Assembly: GCA_905236245.1 (NCBI GenBank)
Contig: CAJOPC010000021.1
Coordinates: 1-48,963, forward strand
Direction: 5' to 3'
Origin: an uncultured Alphaproteobacteria bacterium
GTDB lineage: Bacteria; Pseudomonadota; Alphaproteobacteria; CAAHEQ01; UBA3637
DNA length: 48,963 bases
A model generated the notes under the pieces. That model was not told where the DNA came from, made no database searches, and saw only the letters and a program-made list of their open reading frames with translations. Position numbers and translations under genes: made by a program. Positions 12,447-45,938 of this stretch are shown here, piece by piece; within the stretch, counting starts at the first letter, position 1; every line of letters starts with the position of its first letter.

Positions 12447-15400
12447 TCGCCGAGTCCTCCTAAAGTTTTTAACAAAAGTTTGAACACAATAGATGTGCTA
12501 CCTTTATAGTTTCTGTCCCTTGCATATGATTTGGACACATTCATTGAGACAGCAGTACACTCATTATCATAGCGTAATTGCCATCCATATTCAATAGGGC
12601 CGCCGTGTTTTTTTAGGTTATAACGGTAATATCCGGAAGTTTGCCAGTTTTTAGTTAGTTGCGAGGATGCATTAAAACGAATTTCATCTTCTTCGTCATA
12701 ATATTTGTCATCCAACACATAGCTAGCTTGATATAGATAATTGATGCCAAGACGTAAAGGATCATTTCCTACTTGGAAGCCAACGTCATTTTTGCGTTTT
12801 GAAAAATTCTTTTGATCCAATCTGAAACGATAAGAAAGGTTCATATATTGATAGTTCATTTGAACATGTCCTACGTAATCAGATAGGTGATTGCTATAGC
12901 CCATAACGTCACTCAGTTCATCATTTGCGTGTAATCGATAGACTTGTCCGAATAAGAAGGAAAAAGAGCGCGTTCTGTTTTCATTGTGATAAGCTGTCCA
13001 TTGGAAACCATAATTGACGCGGTTGCCATATTCAATACGATCATAACCGGCAAATCGATTTTCGGAAAATAAATTCGTATCATCAAAGTCAAAGATACTA
13101 CTGTCTATATTGGGAATTTCAGATGAATTTTTTGAATTGGGTGAGGCAATTAACATCACGATGGGTTCAAATATTTGTGTGGTAGATTCTGTATACATGC
13201 CCAACGGATAGCTGATTTTTGTTGAAGCAATAGGTGAGAATCGTCCTTTATTAAAGGAGTCTTGTTGATTTCGAGTAGAAACCAAAGTATCTCTGTTTAT
13301 GTTTAACGCATATCCGTCTAAGCGCACGCTTGCTCTTGTTTTGGTCACAAGCCCGAATCCTGTGGTATAAGGAAGCTCAAAACCTTGAATACCTGATAAT
13401 CTGTTAGATTTTAAATGTGTCCGTGTGTTATACATAGCAGCATTTATTTTTGTGAAAGCAATTAATCCAGAATCTGTCAGAGGAGCGGTTGTATAATTGC
13501 TATCAACCGTAGGAATGACAATAGGAATTGATTCACTGTTGACCCCGTTTACCAAACTTTGAAAATGCCAAGCTTTTGCTTGTGTGTAAAAACGGGTTCC
13601 AAAATATTCTGCCGTCAAATGGGAACGCAAGAAAGATTCCGAATCGTCAACATTAGGGATGGTATATCGTCTGAAATATGTATCATTGATTGTTCGGAAA
13701 TATTGTCCGGAAAGACGTAAATTTTCTGTTGTATCATATTCAAAATTTGTTTTAATGTGCCCTTGTTTGGCAGAATCATTATCTTTTGTTCCGCTGAGTT
13801 GTAAATTCACAATGCCTTTTGTAAAACGCCCGGAATAATCAATAATCCCCAGTGGTAAGTGATTAAAAGATATCTCCGGTGTAAATAATAAATTTTGATT
13901 TTGTGCAAGATTTACAAAAAACGGTGTTTCAATTGCCAATCCCATTTCTCGGGTATGTCGAATGGCTGGTGCTAAAAATCCCGTTTTCCTTTTAATGGTC
14001 ATATCTGGAATTTGAAAATAGGGAAAATATAAAATAGGAAAGTCCATAATATCTAAGAACATATGATTAAAAGACAAAGTATGATCCGTAAAATCCTGGG
14101 TAATTTTTTTTGCTCCGATTTGCCATAATGGAGCTTCTCCCTGACAAACATGACAAGGTGTATAAGTTGCTTCCTGCAAGATAATGATGTTTCCATCTGA
14201 AGTGTGCATCTTCTCTGCGCTTAATAAACTGCCATCAGTAAATTGATTGGTAATGGAGTTGGCTTCTGCCTTTGATTGTTTAGGCGACAATGTCATGTTT
14301 TCAACAGTAGATTGTGTGCCGTCCGCCAAAGATAGTTGTGTTTTGTGAGGCACTAAAACTTCGTCTTTTTCTTTGTTGTAAAGAATTTTATCTGTTTTAA
14401 TTTTCAATTGATCTTGTCGTAAGATCACATTCCCTGTCGCGGTTATGATATTCTTATGCGCATCATAACTCATGTGATCTGCTTCAAAATCTATAGGAGC
14501 TTTTGGGTTTATGTGATCTAAATTAATTTTTGGAACCGCAAAACTAGGAGAGGCAAGGCCTATTACTGCCAGAAAAACACTCAAAGAAATAAATCCCATT
14601 TTGCGTTCTTTTATGAGGACAAAATACAATACAATAAGCGGAATAAATAAGTTTGAAGCCATCAAAATAATCCCCCACAAATTACGCACGGCTATATTTT
14701 CAAAAGCCAGTGAAAATGATTGTAGCAGTAATGCGCAAAAAATGATAGCATTAATTTGTTTGGATTGTCCGCGACGATTGTAAAAACCATGTAAAACACC
14801 AAAAGCGGCCAGCCATAAAAACAGCAAATTATATAATGGTTGAGTTAAACGTTTAAAGGCTTCTACTTTGCATTTGCGGTAGAGTGGAGCATCCGGTATC
14901 ATCTCGGGAGTTACTTGAATTAATTGCTTCAATGTCATTTCTCGAGGATCCATCTTATGTTTTGATTTGCCCGCTTTGTCTGAAAAGAGCATAGTATATT
15001 TATCAAATTTTAAAATGGAAAACTGTTGTGTTTGCGGCGTGTATTCTTGGCGAATACCATTGTTAAATGTGAGGCTGATGCCTTCGGGAGTTTGCATCAT
15101 AGAACCTTCGCGGGCAATTAAAGTGGATTTTTTATCATCTTTCATTTCATAAGCTAAAATACCACGCACCTTGCCGGAATTTTCTCGTTCTCTGATATAC
15201 AGGGTTGAGCCGTTTTTAAAAGAAGTAAATTGGCCTTCTTGTAATAATAAGTGAGAAAGATTGTTTTGAATTTGCCATCGAATTTCTTTGCGTTCATTAA
15301 AGGATTTGGGAATAATGTAAAGTGTTAAAAAATAACCTCCGATAATCAACAGAAAAGCTAAAAATTGTAAAGGTTTTAAAAGTTGTTTGCTGCTCATGCC

Positions 15401-15676
15401 AACGGCCTTTAATACAATCAATTCTTTGTCTGCTTGCATGCGGATAAAAACAAACAAAACGACACCGAATAAAGCCAGTGGTGATAGAATTTGTAAAAAG
15501 TTTGGTAAGACTAAAAGCGTCATTTTTAAAAAGATTCCAACAGAAACACCCTTTGTGACAATCATGTCAATCATGCGCAAAGATTGTGTCAGCCAAATCA
15601 AAGTCGTCAAGCTGATTAAAATCGCAAGAAAGCCGATTAAAGTTTGCTTAAAAATATAAGTGTTTACTGTTTTCAT
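12443..15676 (-). CDS. lptF-lptD: In-frame fusion of LptF permease (aa 1-~355) and LPS-assembly protein LptD (aa ~360-1077)
   Basis: LptF: YIFKQ, WLTQSLR, DKELIVLKAVGMS and six TM helices. LptD: FEADHMSYD jellyroll, YTPCHVC, RKTGFLAP, NRFAGYDRIE, YDNEC and LKTLG C-terminus. No stop at the junction. Confidence 0.88.
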   Translation of the reverse strand: MKTVNTYIFKQTLIGFLAILISLTTLIWLTQSLRMIDMIVTKGVSVGIFLKMTLLVLPNFLQILSPLALFGVVLFVFIRMQADKELIVLKAVGMSSKQLLKPLQFLAFLLIIGGYFLTLYIIPKSFNERKEIRWQIQNNLSHLLLQEGQFTSFKNGSTLYIRERENSGKVRGILAYEMKDDKKSTLIAREGSMMQTPEGISLTFNNGIRQEYTPQTQQFSILKFDKYTMLFSDKAGKSKHKMDPREMTLKQLIQVTPEMIPDAPLYRKCKVEAFKRLTQPLYNLLFLWLAAFGVLHGFYNRRGQSKQINAIIFCALLLQSFSLAFENIAVRNLWGIILMASNLFIPLIVLYFVLIKERKMGFISLSVFLAVIGLASPSFAVPKINLDHINPKAPIDFEADHMSYDAHKNIITATGNVILRQDQLKIKTDKILYNKEKDEVLVPHKTQLSLADGTQSTVENMTLSPKQSKAEANSITNQFTDGSLLSAEKMHTSDGNIIILQEATYTPCHVCQGEAPLWQIGAKKITQDFTDHTLSFNHMFLDIMDFPILYFPYFQIPDMTIKRKTGFLAPAIRHTREMGLAIETPFFVNLAQNQNLLFTPEISFNHLPLGIIDYSGRFTKGIVNLQLSGTKDNDSAKQGHIKTNFEYDTTENLRLSGQYFRTINDTYFRRYTIPNVDDSESFLRSHLTAEYFGTRFYTQAKAWHFQSLVNGVNSESIPIVIPTVDSNYTTAPLTDSGLIAFTKINAAMYNTRTHLKSNRLSGIQGFELPYTTGFGLVTKTRASVRLDGYALNINRDTLVSTRNQQDSFNKGRFSPIASTKISYPLGMYTESTTQIFEPIVMLIASPNSKNSSEIPNIDSSIFDFDDTNLFSENRFAGYDRIEYGNRVNYGFQWTAYHNENRTRSFSFLFGQVYRLHANDELSDVMGYSNHLSDYVGHVQMNYQYMNLSYRFRLDQKNFSKRKNDVGFQVGNDPLRLGINYLYQASYVLDDKYYDEEDEIRFNASSQLTKNWQTSGYYRYNLKKHGGPIEYGWQLRYDNECTAVSMNVSKSYARDRNYKGSTSIVFKLLLKTLGGLGE

Positions 15677-25881: not shown

Positions 25882-25931
25882 GTCGGTGAAATAGCACACA
25901 ATAAAAAAATCAAAAAAAATGAAAAAAAGTG

Positions 25932-25960
25932 TTGCAAAGGCCAAAAAAAGTATGTAAATT
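25932..25960 (+). promoter_or_regulatory. Putative promoter of the secreted-protein/T4SS operon
   Basis: TTGCAA, 17 bp, TAAATT, preceded by A-tracts (UP-like). Confidence 0.45.
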
Positions 25961-25994
25961 GGACCTAGGTACTTTTTTAAAGAGGGAGGATTGT

Positions 25995-28900
25995 ATGCAG
26001 AATTTTATCCGAATTTTGTTATTAGGTGTTGCATTTGTGTGTGGGGCAAGCTGTGAGGTTTGGGCAGCAGATTCGCAACATTATGTTGGGCTTCCGCGAG
26101 ATGGAATGTTAGATATTTTTGCAGATAGCGATGGTCATGCAATTTTTACTTTTCATATTGGCTCTACGGATCAGGTGTTTCATACGGCGGCCCAGGCCCG
26201 AGAGGCTTTGATAGATGAGTACTATGGTAGCCGTGAGGATCGCGCACTGAGGACTTTTGATGCTCTTGTGAGTGCATATGGTTTAAGTCCGAATGATAGT
26301 AGTACTCAATATTTTCAACCAAGAGATTACACGAGAACGTGGACCAGAGATGATAATGGACAGGTTGTTTTTGAAACACAACTTAAATCGATAACTATTC
26401 CTGGTTCTGCAGGAGGCAATTCAAATGGTTCTAGTTCGGATTATACGTATATGCCGGGAGCCTCTTGGACATCGCCAAGTGAGGTTGGTAGTGTAGGTGG
26501 TGGAGTTTTGTCTGCGCGAGAGGCAATGAAATATTCTAATATCATGGGGGTTGCTCCAAGAGATCCTACGCAACTTTCTTTTGGGCCAGTTCAGGGGGCG
26601 ACAGATCAATTTACTGGCAGCCTTACCGAATTGATGGGCAAGCCAGGGGGAAGAGAGTATTATCATGCGGTAATTGCTCCACAATTGGGTGATATGGGTA
26701 TCACGGTATTGAATAATGCGGCAAATAATACGACCTATTATGCAAAAAAGGAGGATTTACCACAGTTAAATGGTACTTTGAATCAAACCATTAAGATAGA
26801 TGGTGTCCCTATGCAAGTGGGAGATCTGGATACTGCGTCCATACGATCTTTGGCCGAAGCAAGCGGTATGACGTATAATAATGATACTACTTCTTTCAAA
26901 TATAATACCGACAGTTTAAGTGGTGTTACAAGAAACCCAGGAGGAGATTATTCTGCTACGGTTAATGGGACGGAAGTTTCCGGTATTTCACGGGAGATGT
27001 TGCCGTTTTCTATGGCCCAAACTGCAGATGATCATTTCCAGGCAAAAGTGGATCAAGTAGGAACAGCCGTACCGGTTACAACTGCAGATGGACGAACGAC
27101 GGGATGGTATGATGAAAAAACAAAAACAATAACCGTTGGAGGTCAGACATATACAGGGGTCATTGCAGAAGGAGATACTTTTTATGGTGGTAATCAGACT
27201 TTCCAACGAGCGGGGGAGGCCGCAGGATATGAGGTATATGACAAGTTTAATACCCATGTTGATCCCCAAAATGTTTCTATTAGAGTTGTAGATGGAAAGC
27301 CAGTTGCTGTTGATCGTCTTGGGCAAGTGATGGATGGGGCACACTTGGTGCCAAAGTCATTGGCTTCGGAATATAGTATGGATTCATACTTGGTTTATGA
27401 TAAAGACGGTGGTACTTGGAGTATAAGAGGTAATGATGCAAGCGGATCTCTTGTTCCAGCTCAAGTGCTTCAATATAATCCAGCGACAAATACATTTGAA
27501 TTGTCGGATGCACAGCGGCAATTGAACGCGGCACATGTTGCCAATCAGAACAATTATAACGCACAAATGGCAAAACTGGGCGAACAAATAAAGGGCGCAG
27601 AGGATGTTTTGCGTTTTGCAACCGTGCCCGAAAAGAATGCCGAAGGTCAGAAAACTGGTGGAACTACCTGGTTAAGCGATAGCGATAAGGAAACAATTCG
27701 AGGATTTATTAACAATGGTAATGCGGCTGGGTTGCAGGAGTATTTTGCGAACAACAATCCGGGTTTGTCTGAAGGGGATGTTAAAGCATTAGTGAATGCG
27801 GCTGCATCTCGGGCTACTCTTGATTCCTTGGCTAAACAACCAGGTGTGACGCAAGGGGATGTTCCTACTATGAACTTTAATAGTGCTATTGATAATGATT
27901 TAAAGAAAATGCAAACTCTTGCCGGTACAGTGAATGGAAATGATACGCTTGAGAATCGTTGGAATGCTTTGACCAGTTTGGCAGGTTTGGCTAATGGATA
28001 TGCTGATCCTAATTCGCCGACTTATAATCCTAGCTTTAATCCCAATAATATGCCATCAAGCATTGGATCCGCGATGGATGCGTCTCAGTACTTTTTTGAT
28101 ACGTCAGGAGATACGCTTAAGGGTGCCAATAAGACATTGTGGGATAATTTGAGATTTGGTCAAAATGATTATAATCAGTCTGGATATTACGCATTGAATG
28201 ACCAGAATCGTGGAATAATAGATGGACGCTACATGTTTGATGCCCGAGAAGGTAGTGAGTTTTCAAAGGGTTTGGCCAAGTTGGGTTTGAAAGTTGTGAC
28301 GCCGGATGGTGGTGATACATGGCAATTTGTGGCTGCGGGAGATTATAAGGATTTAGGTAGTGCATATATGGACTATGCTGCGGCAAGGAATGCTTATGAT
28401 GCATTATCTGGTCGTGGAAGTATGTCTCAAAGTACTTCGACAGTTGGCCGGTTACAAAATACGATTAGAGATCTTGAAAATAGGCTAAGTGAAATGCCAT
28501 TCTTTAAGAATAAGGACCAGAAGGCTCAAGCGGCTCAGCTTAAGCAACAGCTTGCAGACGCCAAAAAAGAACTTGCGGCAGCACAGGGACTGGTCGATAC
28601 TTATAAAAAGGATTTGAATGATCCTACTAATTTCAGCAAGTATTCAGAACTTGTTGGTCCTATGCAGGCGGCTCAGGACAGATTGGCGGCAGCTGAGGCA
28701 GCTTTAAAGAAAAACCCAAATGATCCAAAAGCAAAACAGGCTGTTGAATCGGCTAAGAAGGCGTTAGAAGATGCGCAAAATGCGTCCAAGCAAAATGTGC
28801 AAGATCTAGGGGCCCAACATATAGCAGCCGAGGCGGCAAATGCGGCACGGGAAAAGTTGATAGCAGAGTCAAGGAATGCTGCAAATCAAACTCTTGCCGG

Positions 28901-29984
28901 AGCGGCTGGATCTGGTGATACACCTAATGGACTTGGAACAAACAATAATGGAACATTTGTGCCAAGCGCTGGATTTGCACCGTTCTATAATATGATGATG
29001 GATCCGGATAGCGAGATTGGTGCGGGTATGCGTAATTATTTTGCAAGTAGCATTGACCCAAATACTGGTAATACATCTTCTGATTATCACAACCTTGATT
29101 TTTACAAGAATATGAGTCCGGAGCAAAGGGAAGCCTTTGATAAGTGGTTTGGTGGTTTGTCTCCCGAAGAAAGGCAAGCTTTGCAGACTGCCGGTGTCCA
29201 AACGGATGGTCCAATGGGAACGAAAAAAACTGAAGATCCATTGATGGCCCAAACCGAATTGGATAAGAAGGGAATGGATGTTCCACATGAAGCAAAGGTG
29301 GCAGATATTATCCAGTTAGCCTTAGAAATCACGAATACTCTTATGACCGACAATGAATTCGATGAAGTTAAGAACGTCGAAATTGCGGCAGGTGATATTG
29401 GCGAGGCCGTTGGCCCTGTTGAACCGACAGCGTTGGCAGATTCTGATTCTGTGACTCCAAGTGGTCGAATCACCAGTGCGGCAAGTTCTGCAGCCACATT
29501 GTTGAAGATGAGTCCTGTTGACTTGGATCTTTTGAGCACACATGTTGCACAAGAGGAAGAGGAGAATAATACACCTGCTTTACAAACGGGTCTTGGCGGA
29601 ACAAGTCAAGGACAAGGAACCGGAGAGGATGGCACACTTAATCCACCTGCACCGACGCCCGTTGTGGACTCAGAATATGTGAAGGAGATTAAACGACGTC
29701 GGCTTGAATTATTGCGTCAAACAGTGAATAGAGTTATTCCGTTGGCTGAAGGCATGAATGCAATATCCAAAGATTACTTTGAACGTGCAGACGGTTTTGT
29801 GTCGGATTTGAAGCCGGTGGTGACACAGAATGGATCTTTGGGTGGAAATCAAGACGTGAGTCGGTTTGTCTTGTTTGAGAACTTGCGTGCCAGTGCGTTG
29901 ACAGGGGCTCAAATGAGTGTGCAAAGTGCTAGAATTTTGAATGAACAGGAGGTTGTAGATGAAACTACATCAAGCAATAATTAA
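25995..29984 (+). CDS. Large secreted protein (~1329 aa) with coiled-coil segment and VirB5/TrbJ-like C-terminal helical region
   Basis: GGAGG RBS before ATG 25995; signal peptide ending VWA; G/T/N/D-rich N-half, Ala/Lys/Gln heptads, C-terminus resembles the downstream paralogues. Confidence 0.7.
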   Translation: MQNFIRILLLGVAFVCGASCEVWAADSQHYVGLPRDGMLDIFADSDGHAIFTFHIGSTDQVFHTAAQAREALIDEYYGSREDRALRTFDALVSAYGLSPNDSSTQYFQPRDYTRTWTRDDNGQVVFETQLKSITIPGSAGGNSNGSSSDYTYMPGASWTSPSEVGSVGGGVLSAREAMKYSNIMGVAPRDPTQLSFGPVQGATDQFTGSLTELMGKPGGREYYHAVIAPQLGDMGITVLNNAANNTTYYAKKEDLPQLNGTLNQTIKIDGVPMQVGDLDTASIRSLAEASGMTYNNDTTSFKYNTDSLSGVTRNPGGDYSATVNGTEVSGISREMLPFSMAQTADDHFQAKVDQVGTAVPVTTADGRTTGWYDEKTKTITVGGQTYTGVIAEGDTFYGGNQTFQRAGEAAGYEVYDKFNTHVDPQNVSIRVVDGKPVAVDRLGQVMDGAHLVPKSLASEYSMDSYLVYDKDGGTWSIRGNDASGSLVPAQVLQYNPATNTFELSDAQRQLNAAHVANQNNYNAQMAKLGEQIKGAEDVLRFATVPEKNAEGQKTGGTTWLSDSDKETIRGFINNGNAAGLQEYFANNNPGLSEGDVKALVNAAASRATLDSLAKQPGVTQGDVPTMNFNSAIDNDLKKMQTLAGTVNGNDTLENRWNALTSLAGLANGYADPNSPTYNPSFNPNNMPSSIGSAMDASQYFFDTSGDTLKGANKTLWDNLRFGQNDYNQSGYYALNDQNRGIIDGRYMFDAREGSEFSKGLAKLGLKVVTPDGGDTWQFVAAGDYKDLGSAYMDYAAARNAYDALSGRGSMSQSTSTVGRLQNTIRDLENRLSEMPFFKNKDQKAQAAQLKQQLADAKKELAAAQGLVDTYKKDLNDPTNFSKYSELVGPMQAAQDRLAAAEAALKKNPNDPKAKQAVESAKKALEDAQNASKQNVQDLGAQHIAAEAANAAREKLIAESRNAANQTLAGAAGSGDTPNGLGTNNNGTFVPSAGFAPFYNMMMDPDSEIGAGMRNYFASSIDPNTGNTSSDYHNLDFYKNMSPEQREAFDKWFGGLSPEERQALQTAGVQTDGPMGTKKTEDPLMAQTELDKKGMDVPHEAKVADIIQLALEITNTLMTDNEFDEVKNVEIAAGDIGEAVGPVEPTALADSDSVTPSGRITSAASSAATLLKMSPVDLDLLSTHVAQEEEENNTPALQTGLGGTSQGQGTGEDGTLNPPAPTPVVDSEYVKEIKRRRLELLRQTVNRVIPLAEGMNAISKDYFERADGFVSDLKPVVTQNGSLGGNQDVSRFVLFENLRASALTGAQMSVQSARILNEQEVVDETTSSNN

Positions 29985-30939
29985 TGCCGTTTGTGGTGCT
30001 GCTTTATTGGGGATGACGGTAGCTTCACCGGTTCGGAGTTATGCTTCGACAAGTGAGAAAATGGCTGAGATTCAGGAAGTGTTCACTTATCTTTCTGCGG
30101 GGGTTACCATACTTGCGGCAGGAGTGTCTTTGGTAACTACAGCTGGATGTCCGCTCTTTTGGTGTACGGATTCTATGCCTATGAAGGATGGAATTGGTAC
30201 TGGTTCATTTAATATAGATATTGCCGGGGCCCTTGTGGATGCTGCTGCCATTTGGGTGACCTCAGAATCTGGAACCGAGTGGAAAGGTTTGGAAGATGGT
30301 TTGCAAGCTGCTGTGCGAAAAATCGGCGAAGCAGAGGATCTACAAGAGTCTGGAGTGGAAGAAGCCTTTGTTGATAAATCAGAAATTTTGGTTGAATCCT
30401 TAGATACGGCTGGTTTGGAAGCACTGGAAGATCCAAGCGGAAACATTCCTAAGACACTCGATGAGATTATCAGTTCTCCAGCGAAAATTCAGGATGCTTT
30501 TGGCACGGTATCAGTAAGTCAATTGCAATCGGGTAGTAGTAATGGTAGCAATAGTGGTAGTAATACGAATAGTGGTAGTAATGGAACGTCAACAACGACA
30601 GTGCCATCTAATACCAATTTACAAACAGGCGTGAATCCCGAAAATCTGACGGCTGAGGAGTTAGACTTATTAAGAGCTCGTAGGCGTGAGGCTCATTTAC
30701 AAAAAGTTGCAACTGCAGGTGCTGCTCGTGCTCATTTGATGAAGGTTATTGCTAAAAGAGAAAAAGAGGCAGTTGAGAAGATGAAAGAAGTCGGTAAGGC
30801 CGATGGATTGGTTGCAAATGTTAAGTTGGTGACGGCAGATGATTTATATTTGGGACAGTTGCAAAATACAATGAATTCAGTTTTGGGGCAAGAAGTTGCA
30901 AATGAGGCTGCTGCGGCCTTGCAGAGTATTGAAGAATAA
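29959..30939 (+). CDS. Secreted protein, putative VirB5/TrbJ-like paralogue 2
   Basis: Signal peptide, hydrophobic segment, CPLFWC, S/N/G linker and shared C-terminal helical region. Confidence 0.6.
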   Translation: MKLHQAIINAVCGAALLGMTVASPVRSYASTSEKMAEIQEVFTYLSAGVTILAAGVSLVTTAGCPLFWCTDSMPMKDGIGTGSFNIDIAGALVDAAAIWVTSESGTEWKGLEDGLQAAVRKIGEAEDLQESGVEEAFVDKSEILVESLDTAGLEALEDPSGNIPKTLDEIISSPAKIQDAFGTVSVSQLQSGSSNGSNSGSNTNSGSNGTSTTTVPSNTNLQTGVNPENLTAEELDLLRARRREAHLQKVATAGAARAHLMKVIAKREKEAVEKMKEVGKADGLVANVKLVTADDLYLGQLQNTMNSVLGQEVANEAAAALQSIEE

Positions 30940-30950
30940 AGGAGGAGAAA

Positions 30951-31772
30951 ATGCGTAGAAAGCTTTTATTATCGGTTGTGGTGAGCTGTTTTCTTTTTTG
31001 TTCCAGTGTAGGTTATGGAAAGGTTGTTTTCCCGACCGGCGGTTTAGTCCATTCGCAGATACAAGATCCTATTAGCGCATTGGTTGAGGCTTTATTTTTA
31101 GCCATACAGTATACTCGTAAAGATACGGAAATTGATGCGAGCGCAGGTATTAAAAAGATAAAGGATAACATTGGACAAGGTGATGGTCCGGGAATTTCAG
31201 CAACGGGAGCTTCAGGCGCTGATACTGTTACTGATGAAGAAGCAGCTGAGATGGTTAAGGCAGCAGAAGAAGAGGCTGCAACAGTTCCTAATTTGATTAT
31301 TGAACTGATTGAGAAAAAGGAAGCCGATTTTAAGAAAGTTCAAGCGGTTATTGCAGATCAAGCTTTTGTGCGCGATAGCGCTGAAGTTAATGCTGATTGC
31401 GAATGTGATAATGGTAAAAAAGGCACACAATGTAGCCCTGTAGATTGTGCTGTTGATCGTCAAAATGAAGATTTAATGACCGCCTCAACGGCAGCATCGA
31501 CATTAGCAGATAGCTTTTTCCAAAAGGGGCAAGATGAAAGTTATGAAAAATTACAAGGGTTGATAGACCAGATTAATAGTGATGAAACGCTGATTGATTT
31601 CGTCGCAGATATGGGTGCTGTTTCTGTTTATTCTTCGGATCAATTGGTGGATATGATTGAGTTGTATGCATATGACTTGGCAGCTCAATCCTATCGTAAT
31701 TTATCAACGGTTGGCGTTGCGGAAGTTGATGTCGCACAAGCTGTGAAAGGGGATGTAGATGATGATTCGTAA
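30951..31772 (+). CDS. Secreted protein, putative VirB5/TrbJ-like paralogue 3
   Basis: AGGAGG RBS, signal peptide, IQDP motif, YEKLQGLIDQINSDET resembling the VirB5 C-terminal helix-turn-helix. Confidence 0.6.
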   Translation: MRRKLLLSVVVSCFLFCSSVGYGKVVFPTGGLVHSQIQDPISALVEALFLAIQYTRKDTEIDASAGIKKIKDNIGQGDGPGISATGASGADTVTDEEAAEMVKAAEEEAATVPNLIIELIEKKEADFKKVQAVIADQAFVRDSAEVNADCECDNGKKGTQCSPVDCAVDRQNEDLMTASTAASTLADSFFQKGQDESYEKLQGLIDQINSDETLIDFVADMGAVSVYSSDQLVDMIELYAYDLAAQSYRNLSTVGVAEVDVAQAVKGDVDDDS

Positions 31773-32637
31773 TAAAACTTTTTCAGGTATTATTTTAGGG
31801 GCTCTTTTTATGTCCTCGCTTGTTTGGGCGACATGTCCACCGGAAGGTCGTCCCAAGATTGTGATGGCTCCGTGGGCTGTGACCGATCCAATCCGTAATA
31901 TAACGGGTGCAGTTTTGACGTTGATATCCATGGGTAAGCATCCAAAACAAGTTGCAAAGATTGTTGGACACCAACAGGAAGTAGATGCTTTGATTGATGG
32001 TGAGGAGTCTTATAAGGTTGAGGAAGGAACGGGTTCGGGATCTGGTCCTTTGGAAATTAGCGCCTATACATATATCAAAGAAAAGATTTTTGATAAGCAA
32101 ATGTATTCTCCTTATTCAAAATTGAATAATAAGATTAAACCTTTATTAGGAGGTAGTAGTTCTTCCGGTTCCGGGGAATCCGGTGGTTCATCTGGCTCTG
32201 ATGGTTCTTCGGGCTCTAATGGTTCTTCGGGTTCTAGTGGTTCTTCGGGTTCAAGCTCGGGCGTTTCAAATTCAAGATTGCGTGAAGTTATCTTAGAAGA
32301 ATTTTTCATCGAAAATTCGGCTAAAAATACCGAGGAAAATCGTAAGAAAGTTCAACGTAATCGGGATGATTATTTAAGGGCTTTGGGAACTGAATATACG
32401 CGTTTGTCCAATACTGTTCAATCAAAAATCGGAGATGATATGGCGGCTGTTGTCGCAGCAGTTAGTGGAGATGGTTCTATAGGAATTGTGTCTGGAACCG
32501 ATCAGAGTTGGAAAGCTATTAACAAAGCAGTTTTGGTGGATTTGGCTTTGCAAATTGAAATGATGGAATTGGAAGCGGCACGGTTCTTGTCTGTTCAACC
32601 TATTCCAATGATTGATAATCCAGAACAAGGGTCGTAA
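31759..32637 (+). CDS. Secreted protein, putative VirB5/TrbJ-like paralogue 4
   Basis: Signal peptide ending VWA, VTDP motif, Gly-Ser linker and shared C-terminal region. Confidence 0.6.
   Translation: MMIRNKTFSGIILGALFMSSLVWATCPPEGRPKIVMAPWAVTDPIRNITGAVLTLISMGKHPKQVAKIVGHQQEVDALIDGEESYKVEEGTGSGSGPLEISAYTYIKEKIFDKQMYSPYSKLNNKIKPLLGGSSSSGSGESGGSSGSDGSSGSNGSSGSSGSSGSSSGVSNSRLREVILEEFFIENSAKNTEENRKKVQRNRDDYLRALGTEYTRLSNTVQSKIGDDMAAVVAAVSGDGSIGIVSGTDQSWKAINKAVLVDLALQIEMMELEAARFLSVQPIPMIDNPEQGS
32185..32256 (+). repeat. 4 x 18-bp imperfect tandem repeat encoding GSSGSx
   Basis: ggttcatctggctctgat / ggttcttcgggctctaat / ggttcttcgggttctagt / ggttcttcgggttcaagc. Confidence 0.85.
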
Positions 32638-32647
32638 GGAGGATCAG

Positions 32648-33853
32648 ATGAAAAAGTTTTTAATTGGTTTACTACTTTTGGGCGTGAGCGTTTCTGCTGT
32701 CGCGGTGGATGAGCCGTACGATTCTCATGCGAGAGCTACAGGTTATAATATGGCCGCAGGAAAACAGCAGGGAACTGAATTGGGAAATAGAAATGATAAT
32801 CCTACTTATCGTAAAGATGATGATATCGCGGCTGGTATCAATATGGGGCTTGGTTCTATTTCCATGGTGGATTCTCTTTTGGGAATGTTTACTAAATTTA
32901 CAATAATGGGAAAACTTAATGAATGGGCTAAAGATGCCATTCAAGGTTTGATTTCTTCTGGAGAATCTAAGGCTGCTAACTGCCCGCTGTGTGCTACGAC
33001 ATTGGCAACGGAAGCAACAGGTGGCCCTGAAGATCCGGCTTATGCTGGGGCTTATGCTTCATTTTTGTTGTCTTGTGAGACAATGCCTCCTGTTATGTTA
33101 AAACCTGGTCCAAACGAGCAACATTCTTTTGAAGATACTGTTTGCCCGGTGTGTGTGGAATCTATTGGACATAAGTGGCCACCGATTCTTTTTGTGGCGC
33201 CGGATGTGATGGGTTTGGTTGTTTCAGGTGTAAAATTGCTCACAACACAATTTTTACAGGATGCTAATAAAGTTATTGCACAATTGGTTGGAGCAGAAGG
33301 CCATGTGACAGATAAATGGGTTGGTCCGCCATCTCGTAATACAGTTATTCAAACTATGGGCGAAGTTATTGCGGTTACTTCTCATACATTTGCTTCCTTG
33401 GGTTTTGATGCAAGTGAATACAAGGGAATAGAGGCTCCGGATAAAGCTTCTAGACGAGAATTATTTGAATATCGTTCTAAACAGATTGCCGAAGATCAAA
33501 GATCTTTAAAGAATGTGACACAAAAGAATTTGCGTTTGTTGTATCGTGCTCAACAACGTTCGGTAAAGGCTTTGACTCGTGCGATGGAATTAAAAAAGCA
33601 ATTAAATGTTTTGGCAGATGTGGATGCTAAGATTGATGCAAAATATGATAATTTGCCATCTTCTTTGTCGGCAGAAGCCAGTCGTCGGGCCTTGTTTGGT
33701 GCTTTGATGCAATTAAAATTAAGTATAGTGGCTGCGCGTACGAAAATGCGTTCAGAGGCTTTGGAATTAGAATTTAAACCCATGGTTAAACAAACAGAAG
33801 GTGTGAAATTAGCCACGGGAACTGCTGGGATAACAGACGGAGGCTCACAATGA
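32648..33853 (+). CDS. Secreted Cys-containing protein, putative VirB5/TrbJ-like paralogue 5
   Basis: AGGAGG RBS before ATG 32648, signal peptide AVA, CPLC and CPVC motifs, helical C-terminus. Confidence 0.55.
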   Translation: MKKFLIGLLLLGVSVSAVAVDEPYDSHARATGYNMAAGKQQGTELGNRNDNPTYRKDDDIAAGINMGLGSISMVDSLLGMFTKFTIMGKLNEWAKDAIQGLISSGESKAANCPLCATTLATEATGGPEDPAYAGAYASFLLSCETMPPVMLKPGPNEQHSFEDTVCPVCVESIGHKWPPILFVAPDVMGLVVSGVKLLTTQFLQDANKVIAQLVGAEGHVTDKWVGPPSRNTVIQTMGEVIAVTSHTFASLGFDASEYKGIEAPDKASRRELFEYRSKQIAEDQRSLKNVTQKNLRLLYRAQQRSVKALTRAMELKKQLNVLADVDAKIDAKYDNLPSSLSAEASRRALFGALMQLKLSIVAARTKMRSEALELEFKPMVKQTEGVKLATGTAGITDGGSQ

Positions 33854-35013
33854 AAAAATCATTCTTTTTGTTTGTTTGTTTAACTGCATTGGTTGCCGGA
33901 ACAGGACATGCGGCACGTTATGGGGTTACGCCAATGGTAGAACGTCAAATTGGCACGATAGGAAAGTATCTTCCTTCTCATAACGAGGCACTCGATAACG
34001 CGTTGACGGCACACAATTTGCTTAATAAGTTGCCGGAGTTACAGAAGGTGTCCGAGACAATGCGTACTTTGGGACTTACAACCAAAAAAATGCAAAAATA
34101 TTTTGATAGTTTGATGAAGTGTAATGAACAACGGTTTGCCGGACGTTTTAAGAATCCTCGGGCGATGGTTGATAAAGTGCGGCAGGAATATGCACAACGT
34201 GTTGACGCAATGCCAAAAGAGGCTGATTCGGATCCGGATAGTATTGTTCCGTTATCTATCAGACAACGTGATGAGCGTAGTAAGCGTAAGGCGCAGATTG
34301 AAAACGAGGTAATGACAGATGTTTTTAAAAATGGTGAAAAATATGGTGGTGAGATTATAGCTAAATCTTCTGCTGTTGCGCCCAAAGTGATGCCTCGAAA
34401 TTCCGAGTATAATGTGCTCCAAGAAATGGGAGATTTGGAGACGGGCTTGAATAATGCTAAGGTTGGTCAAGAACAGTTGGCATCCACGTTTAAGCGGATG
34501 CAAGACGATTTTTCTCGCCAACTTGAGAAATTAGGTTTGTCGTATCCGAATTTAGATCTGTCAAAGGGGGCTCAGGTTTTGTCAGTGCGTAAAGCGCTCA
34601 AAGAGGTGAAAAGTCGTTATCTAAACGAAGCTAAAGCATATATCGTGAAGTTGGACGAACAGGACGCGGCTCATCCAGATTTAGCTAAAGAACGTGAAGC
34701 GCGTTCTATGAATAAAGAAAAAGTTATGGCGCGGATGCAAGAGCAATTCCCGGAGGCTTTTTCTGAATTACAAAGTTTGGATTATCAAACCCCACAACAA
34801 CAGCAACAGTTGTTGGTTACGGCCTTGGAACAGGATAAGGAAGCCTTGGTGTATTTAACAGCTACAAATGCTGTAGAAGTAGATCAGCGCATGGCTGAAG
34901 GGCGTTCAAATCGAGCCATGGTCCAAGAGTTAGTCGATAAAGCCTTTAATTTGGTTGACGAAAATATGGAACAGGCGTTTGATTTTGATTTTAGTATGTG
35001 TCAATCAAGCTAA
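33850..35013 (+). CDS. Secreted all-helical/coiled-coil hypothetical protein
   Basis: Signal peptide ending GHA; ATGA overlap with the previous gene; charged helical sequence. Confidence 0.65.
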   Translation: MKKSFFLFVCLTALVAGTGHAARYGVTPMVERQIGTIGKYLPSHNEALDNALTAHNLLNKLPELQKVSETMRTLGLTTKKMQKYFDSLMKCNEQRFAGRFKNPRAMVDKVRQEYAQRVDAMPKEADSDPDSIVPLSIRQRDERSKRKAQIENEVMTDVFKNGEKYGGEIIAKSSAVAPKVMPRNSEYNVLQEMGDLETGLNNAKVGQEQLASTFKRMQDDFSRQLEKLGLSYPNLDLSKGAQVLSVRKALKEVKSRYLNEAKAYIVKLDEQDAAHPDLAKEREARSMNKEKVMARMQEQFPEAFSELQSLDYQTPQQQQQLLVTALEQDKEALVYLTATNAVEVDQRMAEGRSNRAMVQELVDKAFNLVDENMEQAFDFDFSMCQSS

Positions 35014-35030: not shown

Positions 35031-35651
35031 ATGGCGCAGCAGTTGCAGTCAGCATGGCATTTGACGCGTTTGTTGATGGTATCGTGTTGGATTCTGTGGG
35101 TGTTGGTGTTTTTTGTGACTGTGACTCTTTTCCAGGCGGTCATACAGATTCATGTGGTTGCTCAGGTCGTTCGGCAAAACTCGATGTTTTTTGAGGATTT
35201 AAGCCAGGTCGTTCCGATTAATGCGGGTATTTGGACGCGTGTGGATGATATGTTGGTGCGCTTTTATTTGGAAATGCGTTATTCCATTATTCCGGATTTG
35301 GATGAAATGAAAAGACGGTGGGGAGAAGCAGGTATCGTATCATATTTGTCTTCTTCGTCGGCCTATAATGCATTTATGCCTAAACCCAATGAAATTTCCC
35401 AAATTGTTACGTCAACACCTCCGCGGGTTGTTGATGTGACGCGGGTGGAACGGCAAGGTGGTCGTTATTCTGTTGACTTTGATTTATATGAGTTTGATAA
35501 GATATCTAAATGGCGTAAAACAAGTAAGACGGCAACTTTGGACTTTACGTATGATCGTAGTAGAGTCTTGTTGGTTCCTGAGATGGGTAATCCCAATGGT
35601 TTTGTGATCACACGTGTCAGTGAATCTGAAGAAAAATCTGTGACGAATTAA
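35031..35651 (+). CDS. virB8: VirB8-like T4SS inner-membrane protein (copy 1)
   Basis: N-terminal TM, LVRFYLEMRY, VSYLSS..AY..F and C-terminal NPNGFVIT. Confidence 0.75.
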   Translation: MAQQLQSAWHLTRLLMVSCWILWVLVFFVTVTLFQAVIQIHVVAQVVRQNSMFFEDLSQVVPINAGIWTRVDDMLVRFYLEMRYSIIPDLDEMKRRWGEAGIVSYLSSSSAYNAFMPKPNEISQIVTSTPPRVVDVTRVERQGGRYSVDFDLYEFDKISKWRKTSKTATLDFTYDRSRVLLVPEMGNPNGFVITRVSESEEKSVTN

Positions 35652-35712: not shown

Positions 35713-35895
35713 ATGAAAATGAGAAAAGTTTTATTATTAGCAGTGGTTGTCGGAGCTGTTGTTTTAGCAGCATGTACATCTGTGTATGAAAAACCACCAG
35801 TTGGAATCGGAACAGAATATTCTGAATTAAAAAAGTCGCCTTGTGCTTGTTTAGAGCTGAAAAAGGCTCCAGAGGTGCCAGAGTGGTTCTCTTAA
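35713..35895 (+). CDS. virB7: VirB7-like small lipoprotein
   Basis: Lipobox LAAC, KSPCAC motif, position between two virB8 genes. Confidence 0.65.
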   Translation: MKMRKVLLLAVVVGAVVLAACTSVYEKPPVGIGTEYSELKKSPCACLELKKAPEVPEWFS

Positions 35896-35909: not shown

Positions 35910-36611
35910 ATGGCTGGTGAAACCACAGGACAACAAGGACATCACAAAATTTCTGCGCGAGAGGTATTACAGGAAGAAAGATACCTGTGGATGTCGCGCG
36001 CTTTTACAGTTATGGTCGTGTTGGCCATTATTTGTAATGTTATTTTGTTGATTGCTTTAGCTAATGTGACGCCGGTGATGCGTGTGCAGCCATTTTATTT
36101 GGAAATACAAGATAAAGATCATCAAGTTATCAATATTGTTCGGCCGAGTGCGGAGACTTTGGATTCCGATTTGTTAAAAGAATCTTTGTTGCGCCAATAT
36201 TTATTGGCTCGATTTGGAATGGGATCGGATTTAACCGAATTAGAAGAGCGTTGGGGTGAAGATGGAATTGTTTATTGGATGAGCGTTGATTCCGTGTTCT
36301 CACAATTTACAGAAGAAGCTCGTAAGTTATTGCGTTTGGCATATGAAGACAATTTGGTGAGAAGTGTGCGTATTTTGTCAGCAAAGAAGGCCAGCCAAGG
36401 TAGCACGGAAGGGGCTGCTGACGTGTGGGAAGTTAAATTGGAATTTCAAGATATAGACAGATCATCTGAAGAGCCAAAGTTTCGGTATTTTGTGGCAAAG
36501 GTTGAGGTTATTTTCCAACCGACACGGTCCGGTTTATTGTGGAGTCAAAGGTTGAAAAACCCGCTTGGTTTTACGGTAACCAGATTTGGTTTGACCGCTG
36601 TTGAAAAATAA
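35910..36611 (+). CDS. virB8: VirB8-like T4SS inner-membrane protein (copy 2)
   Basis: TM followed by P..RVQPF, LRQYLLAR, VYWMS..VF..F and NPLGFTVT. Confidence 0.82.
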   Translation: MAGETTGQQGHHKISAREVLQEERYLWMSRAFTVMVVLAIICNVILLIALANVTPVMRVQPFYLEIQDKDHQVINIVRPSAETLDSDLLKESLLRQYLLARFGMGSDLTELEERWGEDGIVYWMSVDSVFSQFTEEARKLLRLAYEDNLVRSVRILSAKKASQGSTEGAADVWEVKLEFQDIDRSSEEPKFRYFVAKVEVIFQPTRSGLLWSQRLKNPLGFTVTRFGLTAVEK

Positions 36612-36741: not shown

Positions 36742-38433
36742 GTGAAAAAGAAGGTATTTTTAAAGGGGGTTTTACCTTTATTAACAGGGGCAGTTTCTGC
36801 TATTTCTCTTTCTGCAATTGCGCAAAATTTGCCGGCGGATCCGCAAGCGGCTCAATTGGCCGATGCTATGGCTGGAACAGCGGGAGAATATGATGAAGTC
36901 AATTTGGATTATATTCATTCGTTGGGAATGCAACAAAAAGCGTGGAATAATCCATTAGCTCACATGGGTGCTGGTCAAACAAAACCAGGTTATTCAAAGT
37001 ATAATTGGACGCCTGATACTGTTTTGCCTGTGCGTGTGCGTGAAGGCATGATGACATTGATCAACTTGCCCGCATGGGAGTTGATAGAAAATGCACACAT
37101 TGGTTCTCCGGAATCTTTTTATGGTAAAGTGGTGGCGCCAAATTCAATCATGATTTATGCGGAACCTTCCTATATCGGTGTGGATAGTAACATGATTTTG
37201 TTTGGACGCTCTGGAAATCGATATGTGTTCTATTTGCGTAGTGAAACATTTAACACAGATAAAATCACACAATCCGTTGTGGATGTATTGGTTGGTCCGC
37301 GTTGGACGCCTGTCGCTGATGGTGGACAGATGCGTGAAGGAAATGGAACATCTACCATGGCCTCTATGCCGACAATCAATTTGGCTGGCGGATTTTCTAC
37401 GGGAACATCTGGTTCTGTTGCTAATGCTTCTGTGGCTCAAAATATCGCAGATGAGTGGAAAAATAGTGTTCCTATGGACCCTGAGAGCTTGAAATTTGAT
37501 TTGGATATGTTTTTGCCAAATCCTGATGATGTGGATATCGCTCCGGATAATATTTGGAGAGATAATATTTTCACCTATATTGATTTGGGACCGAAGGCAT
37601 TGACGATGACACAGCGTCCTGTGGTTAGTTTGTTAGTGCAAGATACAGAGGTGCCAGTCGGATTTAGAACGCGTGGCGCGAATAGTCGTTTGATTGTTGT
37701 AGAAGCAATTGGTGATTTAGTGTTGCGTAATGGTCAAAAAGTTATTTGTATTAAATTAAGACGTGATCCTGCGGCTGGTTTGGAATATACGGATTATAGC
37801 GGATTTAATGAAAAACCATATGCGTATTTGCAACAGTTGCCGTCACGTTCTGGAGATATGCCGAACCCAGAAGTGACTTTGAATAACGGATCTATGTTGC
37901 ATGGTAGCAGTCCATATGTTTCAGCACAAAATGGCGGTGGCGTTGTAAATGCTGGTTATGCTACGGAAACGGGTGGATTAAATCCATATGCAACGCCTTC
38001 ATATGCAATGCCTTCTTATTGTGCGGATACGACAGGCGCAAATCGTTGTGCTGCCGGTGGAACATGGCAGGATATTCGTCCAATTCCTGAATCTGCAGTC
38101 AATTATGCCCCGGCTTATGCTGGTGTAGAGGCTGCAACGGCTGATCGTGGAACGGTCTTGCCTGTGGCGGTCAATGAGACAATCGCTTTAGAGTTTGGTA
38201 CGGCGCCTGATATTGCAGACTTGGAAAAGCTGTGGGAGCAAGTATATGCGGCTAATGCAGATATTTTATCTGGATATGATCCATATTATTCCGTCGATGC
38301 TTCTGCAAACGGCGAGATGGCGGATCTGTTCCGTTTAAGGGCCGGCACTGTGAAAGATGCTGAAACCGGAGACGCCTTGTGCCGTAAGTTGGGTCGTCGA
38401 GGATACTCATGCTCGGTTGTGCGTATTAAATAA
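36742..38433 (+). CDS. virB9: VirB9/TrbG outer-membrane core subunit fused to a C-terminal SPOR domain
   Basis: Signal peptide; TLINLP..E.I....IG, SNM......NRY.F.L, P..IW.D..FTY, LVLRNGQKVICI; C-terminal FRLRAG....A...ALC..L...G.SC. Confidence 0.85.
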   Translation: MKKKVFLKGVLPLLTGAVSAISLSAIAQNLPADPQAAQLADAMAGTAGEYDEVNLDYIHSLGMQQKAWNNPLAHMGAGQTKPGYSKYNWTPDTVLPVRVREGMMTLINLPAWELIENAHIGSPESFYGKVVAPNSIMIYAEPSYIGVDSNMILFGRSGNRYVFYLRSETFNTDKITQSVVDVLVGPRWTPVADGGQMREGNGTSTMASMPTINLAGGFSTGTSGSVANASVAQNIADEWKNSVPMDPESLKFDLDMFLPNPDDVDIAPDNIWRDNIFTYIDLGPKALTMTQRPVVSLLVQDTEVPVGFRTRGANSRLIVVEAIGDLVLRNGQKVICIKLRRDPAAGLEYTDYSGFNEKPYAYLQQLPSRSGDMPNPEVTLNNGSMLHGSSPYVSAQNGGGVVNAGYATETGGLNPYATPSYAMPSYCADTTGANRCAAGGTWQDIRPIPESAVNYAPAYAGVEAATADRGTVLPVAVNETIALEFGTAPDIADLEKLWEQVYAANADILSGYDPYYSVDASANGEMADLFRLRAGTVKDAETGDALCRKLGRRGYSCSVVRIK

Positions 38434-44951: not shown

Positions 44952-45938
44952 ATGGGTGGCGGATTAGTTGATTCATACAGAGTTTTGGAAATGGCTTTGA
45001 AGCCCTTGTCATATTGGTATAGTCAAGACAATGTGGAAGATGTTGCAGTCAATAATCCTGGCGGTATATGGTTGCGTCTTCGAGGTCGTCATGCGCATCC
45101 GTGGCATTATTATGAAGATCCAAAACTAACAAGAGAATATTTGTATAATATTATGTATTTGATTGCAAATACATTGGAACAGCCGTTTGGTCCAGAGATT
45201 CAAATTCCGATGCTTTACACGGATTTGCCCGGCGGACACCGTTTCGGCGGTATTATGGGGCAAAATGTGCGTTATGATGAAAATGATTTGGAGGGCGGTA
45301 TTGCATTCGATATCCGTGTTTATCGGCCAGATGTTGATATTAAAATGGAAGAATTTGGTTTGGTCAAAGGTGGTCGCTTACATCAATTGAATCGTTTGAA
45401 AAATGTGGAAGATCCGGATGATCCGTATGAGCGATTGGTTTTATCTATCAAACGTGGAGATCATTTGTTGATCAGTGGTGGAACGGCGACCGGTAAAACA
45501 ACATTTTTAAATAATATCTTGAAATTATTGGATGAACACAAGCGTATTGTGACGGTTGAAGATACACGAGAATTGATTGTTCATCAACCGAATCATGTAC
45601 ATTTGTTGGTTTCTCGTGCTGGTGCGGCAAACAAATTTGGTTATGCTCAAGTGGTGGACTTGGTTAACCGTTTTACGCCGGATTCTATTATTTGCGGAGA
45701 GATTTCAACAGATAATGCTTCTGCTATATGGGAATTGATGAATACTGGTCACGATAACTGCTTTGCAACTATTCACGCAGATAGTGCGGAAACGGCTTAT
45801 CGCGCTTTTATCAGCCGAATTATGCATACAAATCGTGAGCTGGATCAAGATAAAACATTTAAAGAAATGAAAGAGCGGTTGCGTGTTGTTCAAATCAATC
45901 GTGATGGAAATATTCGTGCAATTACTGCTATTACTTAA
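44952..45938 (+). CDS. virB11: VirB11-family secretion ATPase
   Basis: DVAVNNPG, Walker A GGTATGKT, Asp box VEDTREL, Walker B PDSIICGE and His box NTGH..ATIHA. Confidence 0.92.
   Translation: MGGGLVDSYRVLEMALKPLSYWYSQDNVEDVAVNNPGGIWLRLRGRHAHPWHYYEDPKLTREYLYNIMYLIANTLEQPFGPEIQIPMLYTDLPGGHRFGGIMGQNVRYDENDLEGGIAFDIRVYRPDVDIKMEEFGLVKGGRLHQLNRLKNVEDPDDPYERLVLSIKRGDHLLISGGTATGKTTFLNNILKLLDEHKRIVTVEDTRELIVHQPNHVHLLVSRAGAANKFGYAQVVDLVNRFTPDSIICGEISTDNASAIWELMNTGHDNCFATIHADSAETAYRAFISRIMHTNRELDQDKTFKEMKERLRVVQINRDGNIRAITAIT

Follow-up and report, generated by a model that had tools for sequence, protein, structure and literature searches.

A predicted SPOR-family domain with non-canonical binding-site residues at the C terminus of VirB9 in small-genome gut Alphaproteobacteria

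The virB9 gene and the C-terminal domain of its product

The stretch of DNA analyzed here (the window) comprises positions 1 to 48,963 of contig CAJOPC010000021.1 in assembly GCA_905236245.1, from an uncultured alphaproteobacterium (GTDB lineage Alphaproteobacteria; CAAHEQ01; UBA3637) whose genome is represented by 1.12 Mb in 55 contigs at 85% completeness. It carries type IV secretion system (T4SS) genes in the order virB8, lipoprotein candidate, virB8, virB9, virB10, and virB11, all on one strand, and our subject is the virB9 homologue, whose product continues beyond the VirB9 core into a low-complexity tether and a C-terminal domain assigned to the SPOR family (Table 1). The core match and the virB8-virB9-virB10-virB11 order are shared with canonical VirB9/TraO/TrbG/CagX proteins (PF03524), from which the window protein differs by about 225 extra C-terminal residues that make up the tether and the SPOR domain. 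A preliminary description of the window, made from the sequence alone, had drawn attention to positions 37760 to 38433, which correspond to residues 340 to 563 plus the stop codon of this open reading frame (ORF). The GTG start codon is preceded a few bases upstream by AAGGAGG, a Shine-Dalgarno sequence, and a genome profile search returned this ORF as the sole CagX/VirB9 match in the genome, again over residues 85 to 338.

Table 1. Features of the virB9 gene and its neighbors, in window coordinates (aa, amino acids)
Feature	Position	Strand	Basis
Two VirB8 paralogues flanking the lipoprotein gene	35031-35651 and 35910-36611	+	Pfam VirB8, E 8.6e-7 and 5.3e-13
60-aa lipoprotein candidate, lipobox LAAC, between both virB8 genes	35713..35895	+	ORF; weak lipoprotein-type NCBIfam matches only
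virB9 homologue with C-terminal SPOR tail	36742..38433	+	563 aa plus stop; ORF and translation
Putative Sec signal peptide, aa 1-27, ending AIA before Q	36742..36822	+	Hydrophobic segment aa 5-23; cleavage site inferred from sequence
VirB9/CagX core, N- and C-terminal beta domains, aa 85-338	36994..37755	+	Pfam PF03524
Low-complexity, indel-rich tether, aa 343-478, A/G/P/Y/S-rich	37768..38175	+	Composition, length variation, low column identity
Short conserved tether motif [MWF]-x-P-[ILM]-x-x-I-P-x-x-V, aa 442-452	38065..38097	+	Homologue alignment
Predicted SPOR-fold domain, aa 479-563	38176..38430	+	Profile homology and predicted fold
Glu484 codon, at the conserved SPOR Gln position (FtsN Q251, RlpA Q270)	38191..38193	+	hhalign column, canonical profile vs PDB sequences, structural alignment
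Arg531-Leu532-Arg533, strand beta3; Arg pair aligned with R309 and R311 in the basic patch of RlpA	38332..38340	+	hhalign and canonical-profile equivalence
Giant VirB10, 2164 aa	38443..44937	+	Pfam Bflower_2 E 6.4e-70, TrbI E 1.6e-29; NCBIfam VirB10
VirB11 ATPase	44952..45938	+	TIGR02788 E 1.1e-43; Pfam T2SSE

The core scores 57 bits with the Pfam CagX/VirB9 profile (cut-off 34.2), covering profile positions 4 to 196 of 198, and the profile is matched by all 65 homologues that we aligned. The equivalog model for P-type VirB9 (TIGR02781) gives only 36.2 bits against a cut-off of 217.7, and the core is therefore best described as a divergent member of the superfamily rather than a P-type equivalog. 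The Pfam match stops at residue 338, in agreement with the preliminary placement of the end of the VirB9 C-terminal domain at the sequence VICIKL.

Between core and C-terminal domain lies a poorly conserved tether of about 135 residues rich in A, G, P, Y, and S, much as the preliminary description had it (a linker of about 140 residues rich in G, A, Y, and P). Residues 343 to 470 (128 residues) include 19 A, 16 G, 12 P, 11 Y, and 10 S. The stretch between the KLRRDP motif and the first strand of the SPOR domain measures 98 to 184 residues in 61 of the 65 homologues (the anchoring motif was not found in the other 4), and mean column identity across the 65 sequences is 0.2 to 0.5 in the tether, with many gaps, compared with 0.64 to 0.79 in the last 85 residues. 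One short motif within the tether is conserved, with I448 in 61, P449 in 63, and V or I at position 452 in 60 of the 65 homologues. Just upstream of this motif there is also a partly conserved Cys pair (C427 in 36/65 and C436 in 27/65 homologues).

The preliminary description took the C-terminal domain to be SPOR and proposed a profile scan for both families. Such a scan places CagX/VirB9 above its cut-off, as given above, and gives marginal scores for Pfam SPOR, 17.4 bits with the whole protein (cut-off 21) and, with the last 94 residues alone, 22.0 bits over profile positions 27 to 76 only; SPOR is matched at an E value of 0.01 or less in 48 of the 65 homologues. Four further tests give stronger support for the assignment and agree with one another. 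When an alignment of 34 of these domains was compared by hhalign with a canonical set of 26 SPOR domains from this genome and its relatives, the probability of homology was 98.65% (E value = 4.5e-16) over 76 columns spanning template positions 2 to 77 of 77. The domain profile, run over 1.84 billion proteins, returned 801 matches at E values of 1e-3 or less, and directly after the VirB9 family came proteins that score 61 to 117 bits with Pfam SPOR, at E values of 1e-18 to 1e-10; 10 of 20 matches from this search that were scanned with Pfam were SPOR proteins other than VirB9. In an ESM Atlas feature search with residues 470 to 563, SPOR clusters accounted for 28 of the 30 named matches (score, 0.90 to 0.91).

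The predicted fold leads to the same family. An AlphaFold model built from the domain alignment (mean predicted local distance difference test score, 85; predicted template modeling score, 0.72) has the order beta-alpha-beta-beta-alpha-beta, with strands at residues 480 to 488, 514 to 519, 529 to 537, and 558 to 562 and helices at residues 491 to 509 and 540 to 552. Both the fold and the order of secondary structure elements are shared with the SPOR domains of FtsN, DamX, DedD, RlpA, and CwlC (PF05036; 1uta, 2lfv, 6ztg, 6i05, and 1x60). The top PDB matches of the model in Foldseek were the SPOR domains of CwlC, DedD, and RlpA, and structural realignment gave a Z score of 10.0 for RlpA (6i05/6i09; root mean square deviation, 2.2 Å; 75 to 76 of 76 to 77 residues) and 9.0 for CwlC (1x60). 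A Burkholderia exported protein, also touched by the canonical SPOR profile, reached a Z score of 10.4, compared with 6.2 or less for unrelated folds. A mismatch with the SPOR fold, which the preliminary description had named as one outcome that would refute its assignment, is thus not what the model suggests.

Pairwise and PDB sequence searches were largely silent. Pairwise BLASTP of the domain against the SPOR-only protein of the same genome found nothing (E value = 36), a sequence search of the PDB with the single domain returned no SPOR match, and a PDB search with the full-length profile returned nothing relevant, VirB9 structures included; with the domain profile, the only PDB match was a weak one to CwlC (1x60; E value = 0.074). 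A region-limited homologue search recovered 19 proteins, all of them VirB9 (PF03524 in 19/19), and Pfam found no OmpA domain in the tail. Judged from profile homology and predicted fold, the last 85 residues are a true SPOR-family domain, far beyond chance. Within the VirB9 family this domain is more strongly conserved than SPOR domains usually are in these genomes, with a mean column identity of 61% and 16 invariant columns (34 sequences), compared with 39% and none in the canonical SPOR domains; a vestigial domain is in practice excluded by this conservation.

Residues at the SPOR binding site

Three lines of evidence place Glu484 at the Gln position of SPOR domains. The hhalign alignment sets I-a-i-E-l-G on i-Q-l-g-A-f, the same column of the canonical profile holds the Gln of FtsN (1uta), RlpA (6i05), and CwlC (1x60), and in the structural alignment model residue 11 falls on RlpA residue 266, which puts model residue 15 (Glu484) on Q270. 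No residue other than this Gln is highly conserved throughout the SPOR family, and in RlpA its amide forms hydrogen bonds with the lactyl carboxylate of N-acetylmuramic acid (MurNAc) and the N-acetyl group of N-acetylglucosamine (GlcNAc) (PMC6895207). Among canonical SPOR domains from this genome and its relatives, the position is occupied by Gln in 24 of 26 sequences and by Arg in the other 2.

Other parts of the site are retained. Residue counts were made on 121 sequences (P0001 to P0121, with P0002 identical to the query), and all equivalences are alignment based. At the positions of RlpA R309 and R311, every one of the 121 sequences has Arg, and the tail thereby keeps two positions of the RlpA SPOR domain in addition to homology along the full length of the SPOR profile; no equivalent of R302 is evident in the VirB9 SPOR domain. 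R302, R309, and R311 of RlpA belong to a basic patch described as “strictly preserved” in known SPOR domains (PMC6895207). The position of RlpA L307 holds L in 108, V in 11, and T in 2 sequences, and that of FtsN S254 holds T in 102, S in 11, A in 7, and I in 1. The two Cys residues of the domain are present in 121/121 and 120/121 sequences, and the alphaproteobacterial pattern of a W and a C...C pair is common to the VirB9 tail and the SPOR proteins of the same genome. The stretch PYYSVD is conserved in loops of the VirB9 domains and variable in canonical SPOR domains. Earlier work cited in PMC6895207 and bioRxiv 10.1101/2024.05.13.594014 found that Q251, S254, W283, R285, and I313 of FtsN matter for septal localization.

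In the RlpA SPOR domain, strands beta1 and beta3 are antiparallel neighbors and Q270 clusters with R309 (PMC6895207), and therefore Glu484 should adjoin Arg531 in the VirB9 domain. From there Glu484 could itself fill the carboxylate pocket or could help bind a cationic group. In RlpA, a sugar stacks against F274, and the remaining contacts between SPOR and glycan come mostly from the main chain (PMC6895207), so that some binding can persist as long as the fold is conserved.

The Glu is consistent across genomes as well as across protein records. As read by eye, all 77 tails translated from named species genomes have Glu and a stop codon straight after the domain; 3 of 80 loci were left out of this reading, as the match fell short of residue 563. 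Two VirB9 tails among the representatives at 50% identity are exceptions, one with Gln (P0152) and one with Asp (P0241). The Glu type also occurs outside VirB9, in two-SPOR proteins of 380 to 480 residues (P0168, P0205, P0209, P0211, P0213, P0214, P0227 to P0229, P0231, and P0265 to P0267), whose N-terminal SPOR domain has the motif F-Y-[VI]-E-[LI]-G.

Distribution, plasmid relatives, and genomic setting

A full-length search found 918 proteins at E values of 1e-3 or less among 8000 scored candidates. The best 120 of these 918 are 509 to 617 residues long and all carry the tail, many are already annotated with both Pfam domains, and the only names among the best relatives are of the form “TrbG/VirB9 family ... 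[Alphaproteobacteria bacterium]”; the closest are 76% identical at the protein level. On contigs from one genome per species, a relative is encoded on 412 stretches, and the best 80 of these derive almost entirely from uncultured Alphaproteobacteria in gut samples of goat, yak, sheep, deer, buffalo, rabbit, horse, and human.

Within the order of the window genome, which as sampled comprises a single family with 16 genera and 80 small genomes (0.7 to 2.0 Mb), a match was present in 78 of 80 genomes and in 54 of 54 high-quality genomes; among the 78, G030 owes its match solely to a different SPOR protein, and in G023 nothing but a fragment at a contig end matches. A sample of 301 genomes, drawn evenly from the whole class, gave matches to the domain profile in 35 at E values of 1e-8 or less and in 16, from 11 families, at 1e-31 or less; 15 of the frames in the latter group are VirB9 sized (485 to 605 residues), and the other is cut off at a contig end. 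A twelfth family is represented by two 0.9-Mb genomes with matches at an E value of 1e-15. Frames from other families were CagX positive in 8 of 8 cases and matched SPOR at an E value of 0.01 or less in 6 of 8, and the most divergent of them (G324) keeps the Glu. The fusion of VirB9 with SPOR is fixed in small-genome gut alphaproteobacterial lineages. One order of reduced-genome gut Alphaproteobacteria, Rs-D84, to which the window genome may or may not belong, has been described as probably partner dependent (PMC12306168); a term search of that paper found neither “secretion” nor “VirB,” and a full-text search for “RF32” Alphaproteobacteria with type IV secretion found no paper.

Plasmids provided a view of more distant relatives. 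A tblastn search of 72,556 plasmids returned 17 records, all aligned only over residues ~49 to 345, with the nearest at 35 to 39% identity over the core. That all 17 alignments stop at about residue 345 bears out the preliminary remark that such a tail is not known from canonical VirB9. The two best plasmid genes, from Sphingosinicella sp. BN140058 p1 (430 residues) and an Erythrobacter aureus YH-07 plasmid (432 residues), are nevertheless about 130 residues longer than the match, and at the end of both tails stands a related domain in which Asp takes the place of the Gln and the sequence RLRVGP and the Cys pair are kept. The Sphingosinicella tail matched our domain alignment by hhalign (96.5%; E value = 7.6e-10; 80 columns), SPOR was the sole Pfam family returned for the two tails, below threshold (12.2 and 17.0 bits), and the canonical SPOR profile aligned with the sphingomonad tail over its last 31 columns only (81%). 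The megaplasmid genes and the window gene thus have in common a VirB9 core and a related tail with an acidic residue; they differ in that the sphingomonad proteins have a shorter tether, stand beside a VirB10 of ordinary size (548 residues in Sphingosinicella and 529 in Erythrobacter), and are plasmid borne, whereas the window gene is chromosomal and precedes a giant VirB10. No such tail is present in the VirB9 proteins of Azospirillum (444 residues) and Paracaedimonas (318 residues). A further candidate, VirB9 of Microvirga sp. VF16 plasmid pMVF16-3 (2746-4398; 550 residues), looked SPOR-like by eye, but homology was unsupported (hhalign, 3.9%; no Pfam match); its tail is long and Pro/Ala rich and ends in a W...C...C segment.

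The gene after virB9 encodes a VirB10-like protein with the same Gly/Val/Asp-rich beta-flower repeats in all 11 loci that were read, from this and other families. In the window, virB10 starts 9 nucleotides past the end of virB9, and its product comprises an N-terminal membrane segment, an ASH-like domain, about nine beta-flower repeats, and a TrbI/VirB10 domain at residues 1870 to 2064. We considered whether the tail is a partner of these repeats, an idea that is weakened by the related tail beside the 548-residue VirB10 of Sphingosinicella, which indicates that the tail does not depend on a giant VirB10. The position of the 60-residue lipoprotein candidate, the usual place of virB7, suggests that it is VirB7. 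Scans for promoters and terminators found promoter-like sites at the expected frequency (28 versus 28.1 expected) and no signal setting virB9 apart from virB10.

The window is chromosomal, with DnaA, LepA, FolD, SurA, and IF3 also encoded in it, and dnaA thus lies on the same contig as the virB9 operon. VirB4 (contig C24) and VirD4 (contig C4) are encoded on contigs apart from the operon, the T4SS genes being scattered in this genome (G000), and no match to TrbL/VirB6 was found in the 85%-complete assembly. Directly upstream of the virB8 genes are six consecutive ORFs of 1351, 326, 273, 292, 413, and 387 residues (25929-35013, plus strand), each with a signal-like N-terminal hydrophobic segment, two with one further segment, and all without a Pfam or NCBIfam family. 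They are placed where VirB6-type genes might be expected, but we rejected them as VirB6, as none looks polytopic. Elsewhere in the window, a 1077-residue ORF (12443-15676, minus strand) joins an LptF/LptG-type inner-membrane permease (residues 7 to 355) to an LptD_N domain and an LptD barrel (residues 398 to 1011). The best 120 of its 166 relatives (E value of 1e-10 or less) all have both PF03739 and PF04453, mostly in about 1062 to 1091 residues, and by this comparison the LptF/LptG-LptD fusion is conserved in this lineage.

Possible roles of the VirB9 tail

We favor the reading that the VirB9 tail tethers the core complex to the cell wall and does so with a non-canonical binding site, and we assign it a probability of roughly 0.45. 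The gene would then encode the VirB9 of the organism's only T4SS, and its core domains would build the outer membrane core complex together with the VirB7-like lipoprotein and the C-terminal domain of VirB10. In VirB7/VirB9/VirB10 structures, the VirB9 C-terminal domain lies under the outer membrane in multiple copies. A predicted disordered tether of about 135 residues, long enough to reach the sacculus, would from there suspend the 85-residue SPOR-fold domain in the periplasm. The domain is capable of forming a disulfide, and its conserved Cys pair is in keeping with an oxidizing compartment. With one SPOR domain per VirB9, a ring of about 14 may surround each machine and may tie it to the peptidoglycan sacculus, fixing or restricting its position. 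The cell makes peptidoglycan, presumably including the denuded form, as its genome encodes three canonical SPOR proteins (an RlpA-like DPBB-SPOR protein, a carboxypeptidase-SPOR protein, and a SPOR-only protein) together with Amidase_3, an SLT-type transglycosylase, and four OmpA-like proteins. The invariant Arg pair, the Leu at the L307 position in 108 of 121 sequences, the Cys pair, and the stronger conservation of the domain than of the tether are all points in favor of a tether to the wall.

The closest functional analogue is DotK of Legionella, an OmpA-like lipoprotein of the Dot/Icm core complex that binds peptidoglycan, depending on the acetylation state of the latter, is needed for polar localization, and holds the machine at the poles once it has been assembled at mid-cell (PMC10266036). 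In both cases a wall-binding-type module would stand on the outer membrane core complex of a T4SS, with binding being a prediction for the VirB9 tail. The two also differ, as DotK is a separate subunit of a type IVB system with an OmpA-like fold that reads the peptide stem, whereas the window protein carries a SPOR fold fused in cis within a VirB-type system.

Several observations weigh against a wall tether. The position of the conserved Gln is Glu in 121 of 121 VirB9 sequences, and a carboxylate there should repel the lactyl carboxylate of the glycan; in FtsN, Q251E is a mutant defective in binding denuded glycans, with septal localization of the isolated domain reduced about 2-fold (bioRxiv 10.1101/2024.05.13.594014). 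The equivalent of RlpA F274 is H in 35, S in 35, N in 31, A in 16, and G in 4 sequences and is never aromatic. The VirB9 domains are acidic (85 residues; n = 34; net charge, −6 to +2; mean, −2.3; median isoelectric point, 4.96), in contrast to the basic canonical SPOR domains from this genome and its relatives (n = 26; net charge, +2 to +12; mean, +6.1; median isoelectric point, 9.9). In its aligned residues, the VirB9 tail is a natural, fixed Q251E-type SPOR domain that has lost the aromatic residue and the positive charge and has kept the pocket arginines. The high conservation of the domain, as seen in the alignments, would also be no less expected of a protein interface than of a site for glycan. 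The VirB9 tail thus departs from canonical SPOR domains in having Glu for Gln, no aromatic residue at the F274 position, and an acidic overall charge, besides being attached to a secretion system subunit rather than to a division or wall-remodeling protein. Given these changes, a tether of this kind is expected to bind more weakly than the cell's own division-site SPOR proteins do, or to bind a different ligand, and this would spare the machine simple competition with them at the septum.

The preliminary description went further and proposed that canonical binding to denuded glycans recruits or retains the machine at the septum and hence at the new pole. Of that proposal, membership in the SPOR family and absence of the domain from canonical VirB9 have stood, and DotK offers a precedent for a wall-bound core complex; canonical binding is not supported as proposed, given the Glu, the missing aromatic platform, and the acidic domain. 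Septal targeting might nevertheless draw on the SPOR fold itself and on the Amidase_3 enzyme encoded in the genome, and the avidity of many copies could offset a weak site; Q251E only about halves the septal localization of the isolated FtsN domain (bioRxiv 10.1101/2024.05.13.594014). There are cellular parallels too, as the Legionella machine is built at mid-cell, the site of the future new pole, with a peptidoglycan-binding subunit as its anchor (PMC10266036), and as the new pole of Sinorhizobium is marked by a SPOR protein and AmiC (PMC7822825). The same cell, however, keeps three basic, Gln-bearing SPOR proteins, which suggests that the VirB9 tail diverged from the septal type under selection. 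We therefore consider canonical septal or new-pole targeting possible but unlikely and not the default expectation. A protein-docking module, in which the SPOR fold serves as an interface to another part of the T4SS or as a self-ring under the core complex and no longer binds the cell wall, would account for the 16 invariant columns across 34 sequences from several families (loop residues PYYSVD included), for the acidic charge and the loss of both the Gln and the aromatic residue, and for the second conserved motif in the tether. Self-interaction between SPOR domains, independent of glycan binding, has been argued for (bioRxiv 10.1101/2024.05.13.594014), and would suit a ring of this kind. 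But no partner was identified, and the related tail beside an ordinary-size VirB10 means that the giant repeats are not a required one; both arginines of the pocket for the glycan carboxylate are invariant, and all characterized SPOR domains are reported to bind denuded glycans (10.1101/2022.07.01.498525). Docking in place of wall binding is thus a serious candidate that we nonetheless hold to be rather doubtful.

It is also conceivable, though very improbable, that the acidic, Glu-type SPOR domain reads a modified wall, such as de-N-acetylated glycan with its cationic amines, and places the machine according to the pattern of wall modification. In simulations, the RlpA SPOR domain releases N-deacetylated glycan as the hydrogen bond of the Gln is lost (PMC6895207), and a Glu could pair with the amine instead. 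Peptidoglycan acetylation state controls DotK binding and Dot/Icm placement (PMC10266036), the genome encodes one Polysacc_deac_1 protein, and an acidic residue recurs in VirB9 tails (Glu, or Asp in the sphingomonad and P0241 forms). This chain of argument is purely inferential, however; the deacetylase gene is not linked to the virB9 operon, and the invariant Arg pair points to continued binding of an anionic group. Taking modified wall and protein partner together, we can suggest only tentatively, and with more doubt than belief, that the tail is a re-targeted SPOR domain selected to read one or the other and not the ordinary denuded septal glycan.

Overall, the families joined in the window protein are known, whereas their combination, found lineage-wide and with a changed binding site, is undescribed; the architecture is already visible in database annotation; full-text literature searches, in which T4SS and SPOR papers were judged by titles and the opening of abstracts, found no paper describing a VirB9-SPOR fusion. 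Envelope fixation and positioning are known for very few T4SSs, and here a domain of wall-binding type is built into the VirB9 ring itself, unlike the separate subunit of Legionella. If the domain is indeed re-targeted, SPOR would not be a single-ligand domain, and the T4SS would carry a built-in positional reader that gives the machine its own envelope address, separate from that of the division proteins. The natural, acidic Gln-to-Glu variant provides a ready-made test of ligand choice in SPOR domains, and the presence of a related tail on plasmids of cultured, non-pathogenic sphingomonads means that ordinary genetics can test its role.

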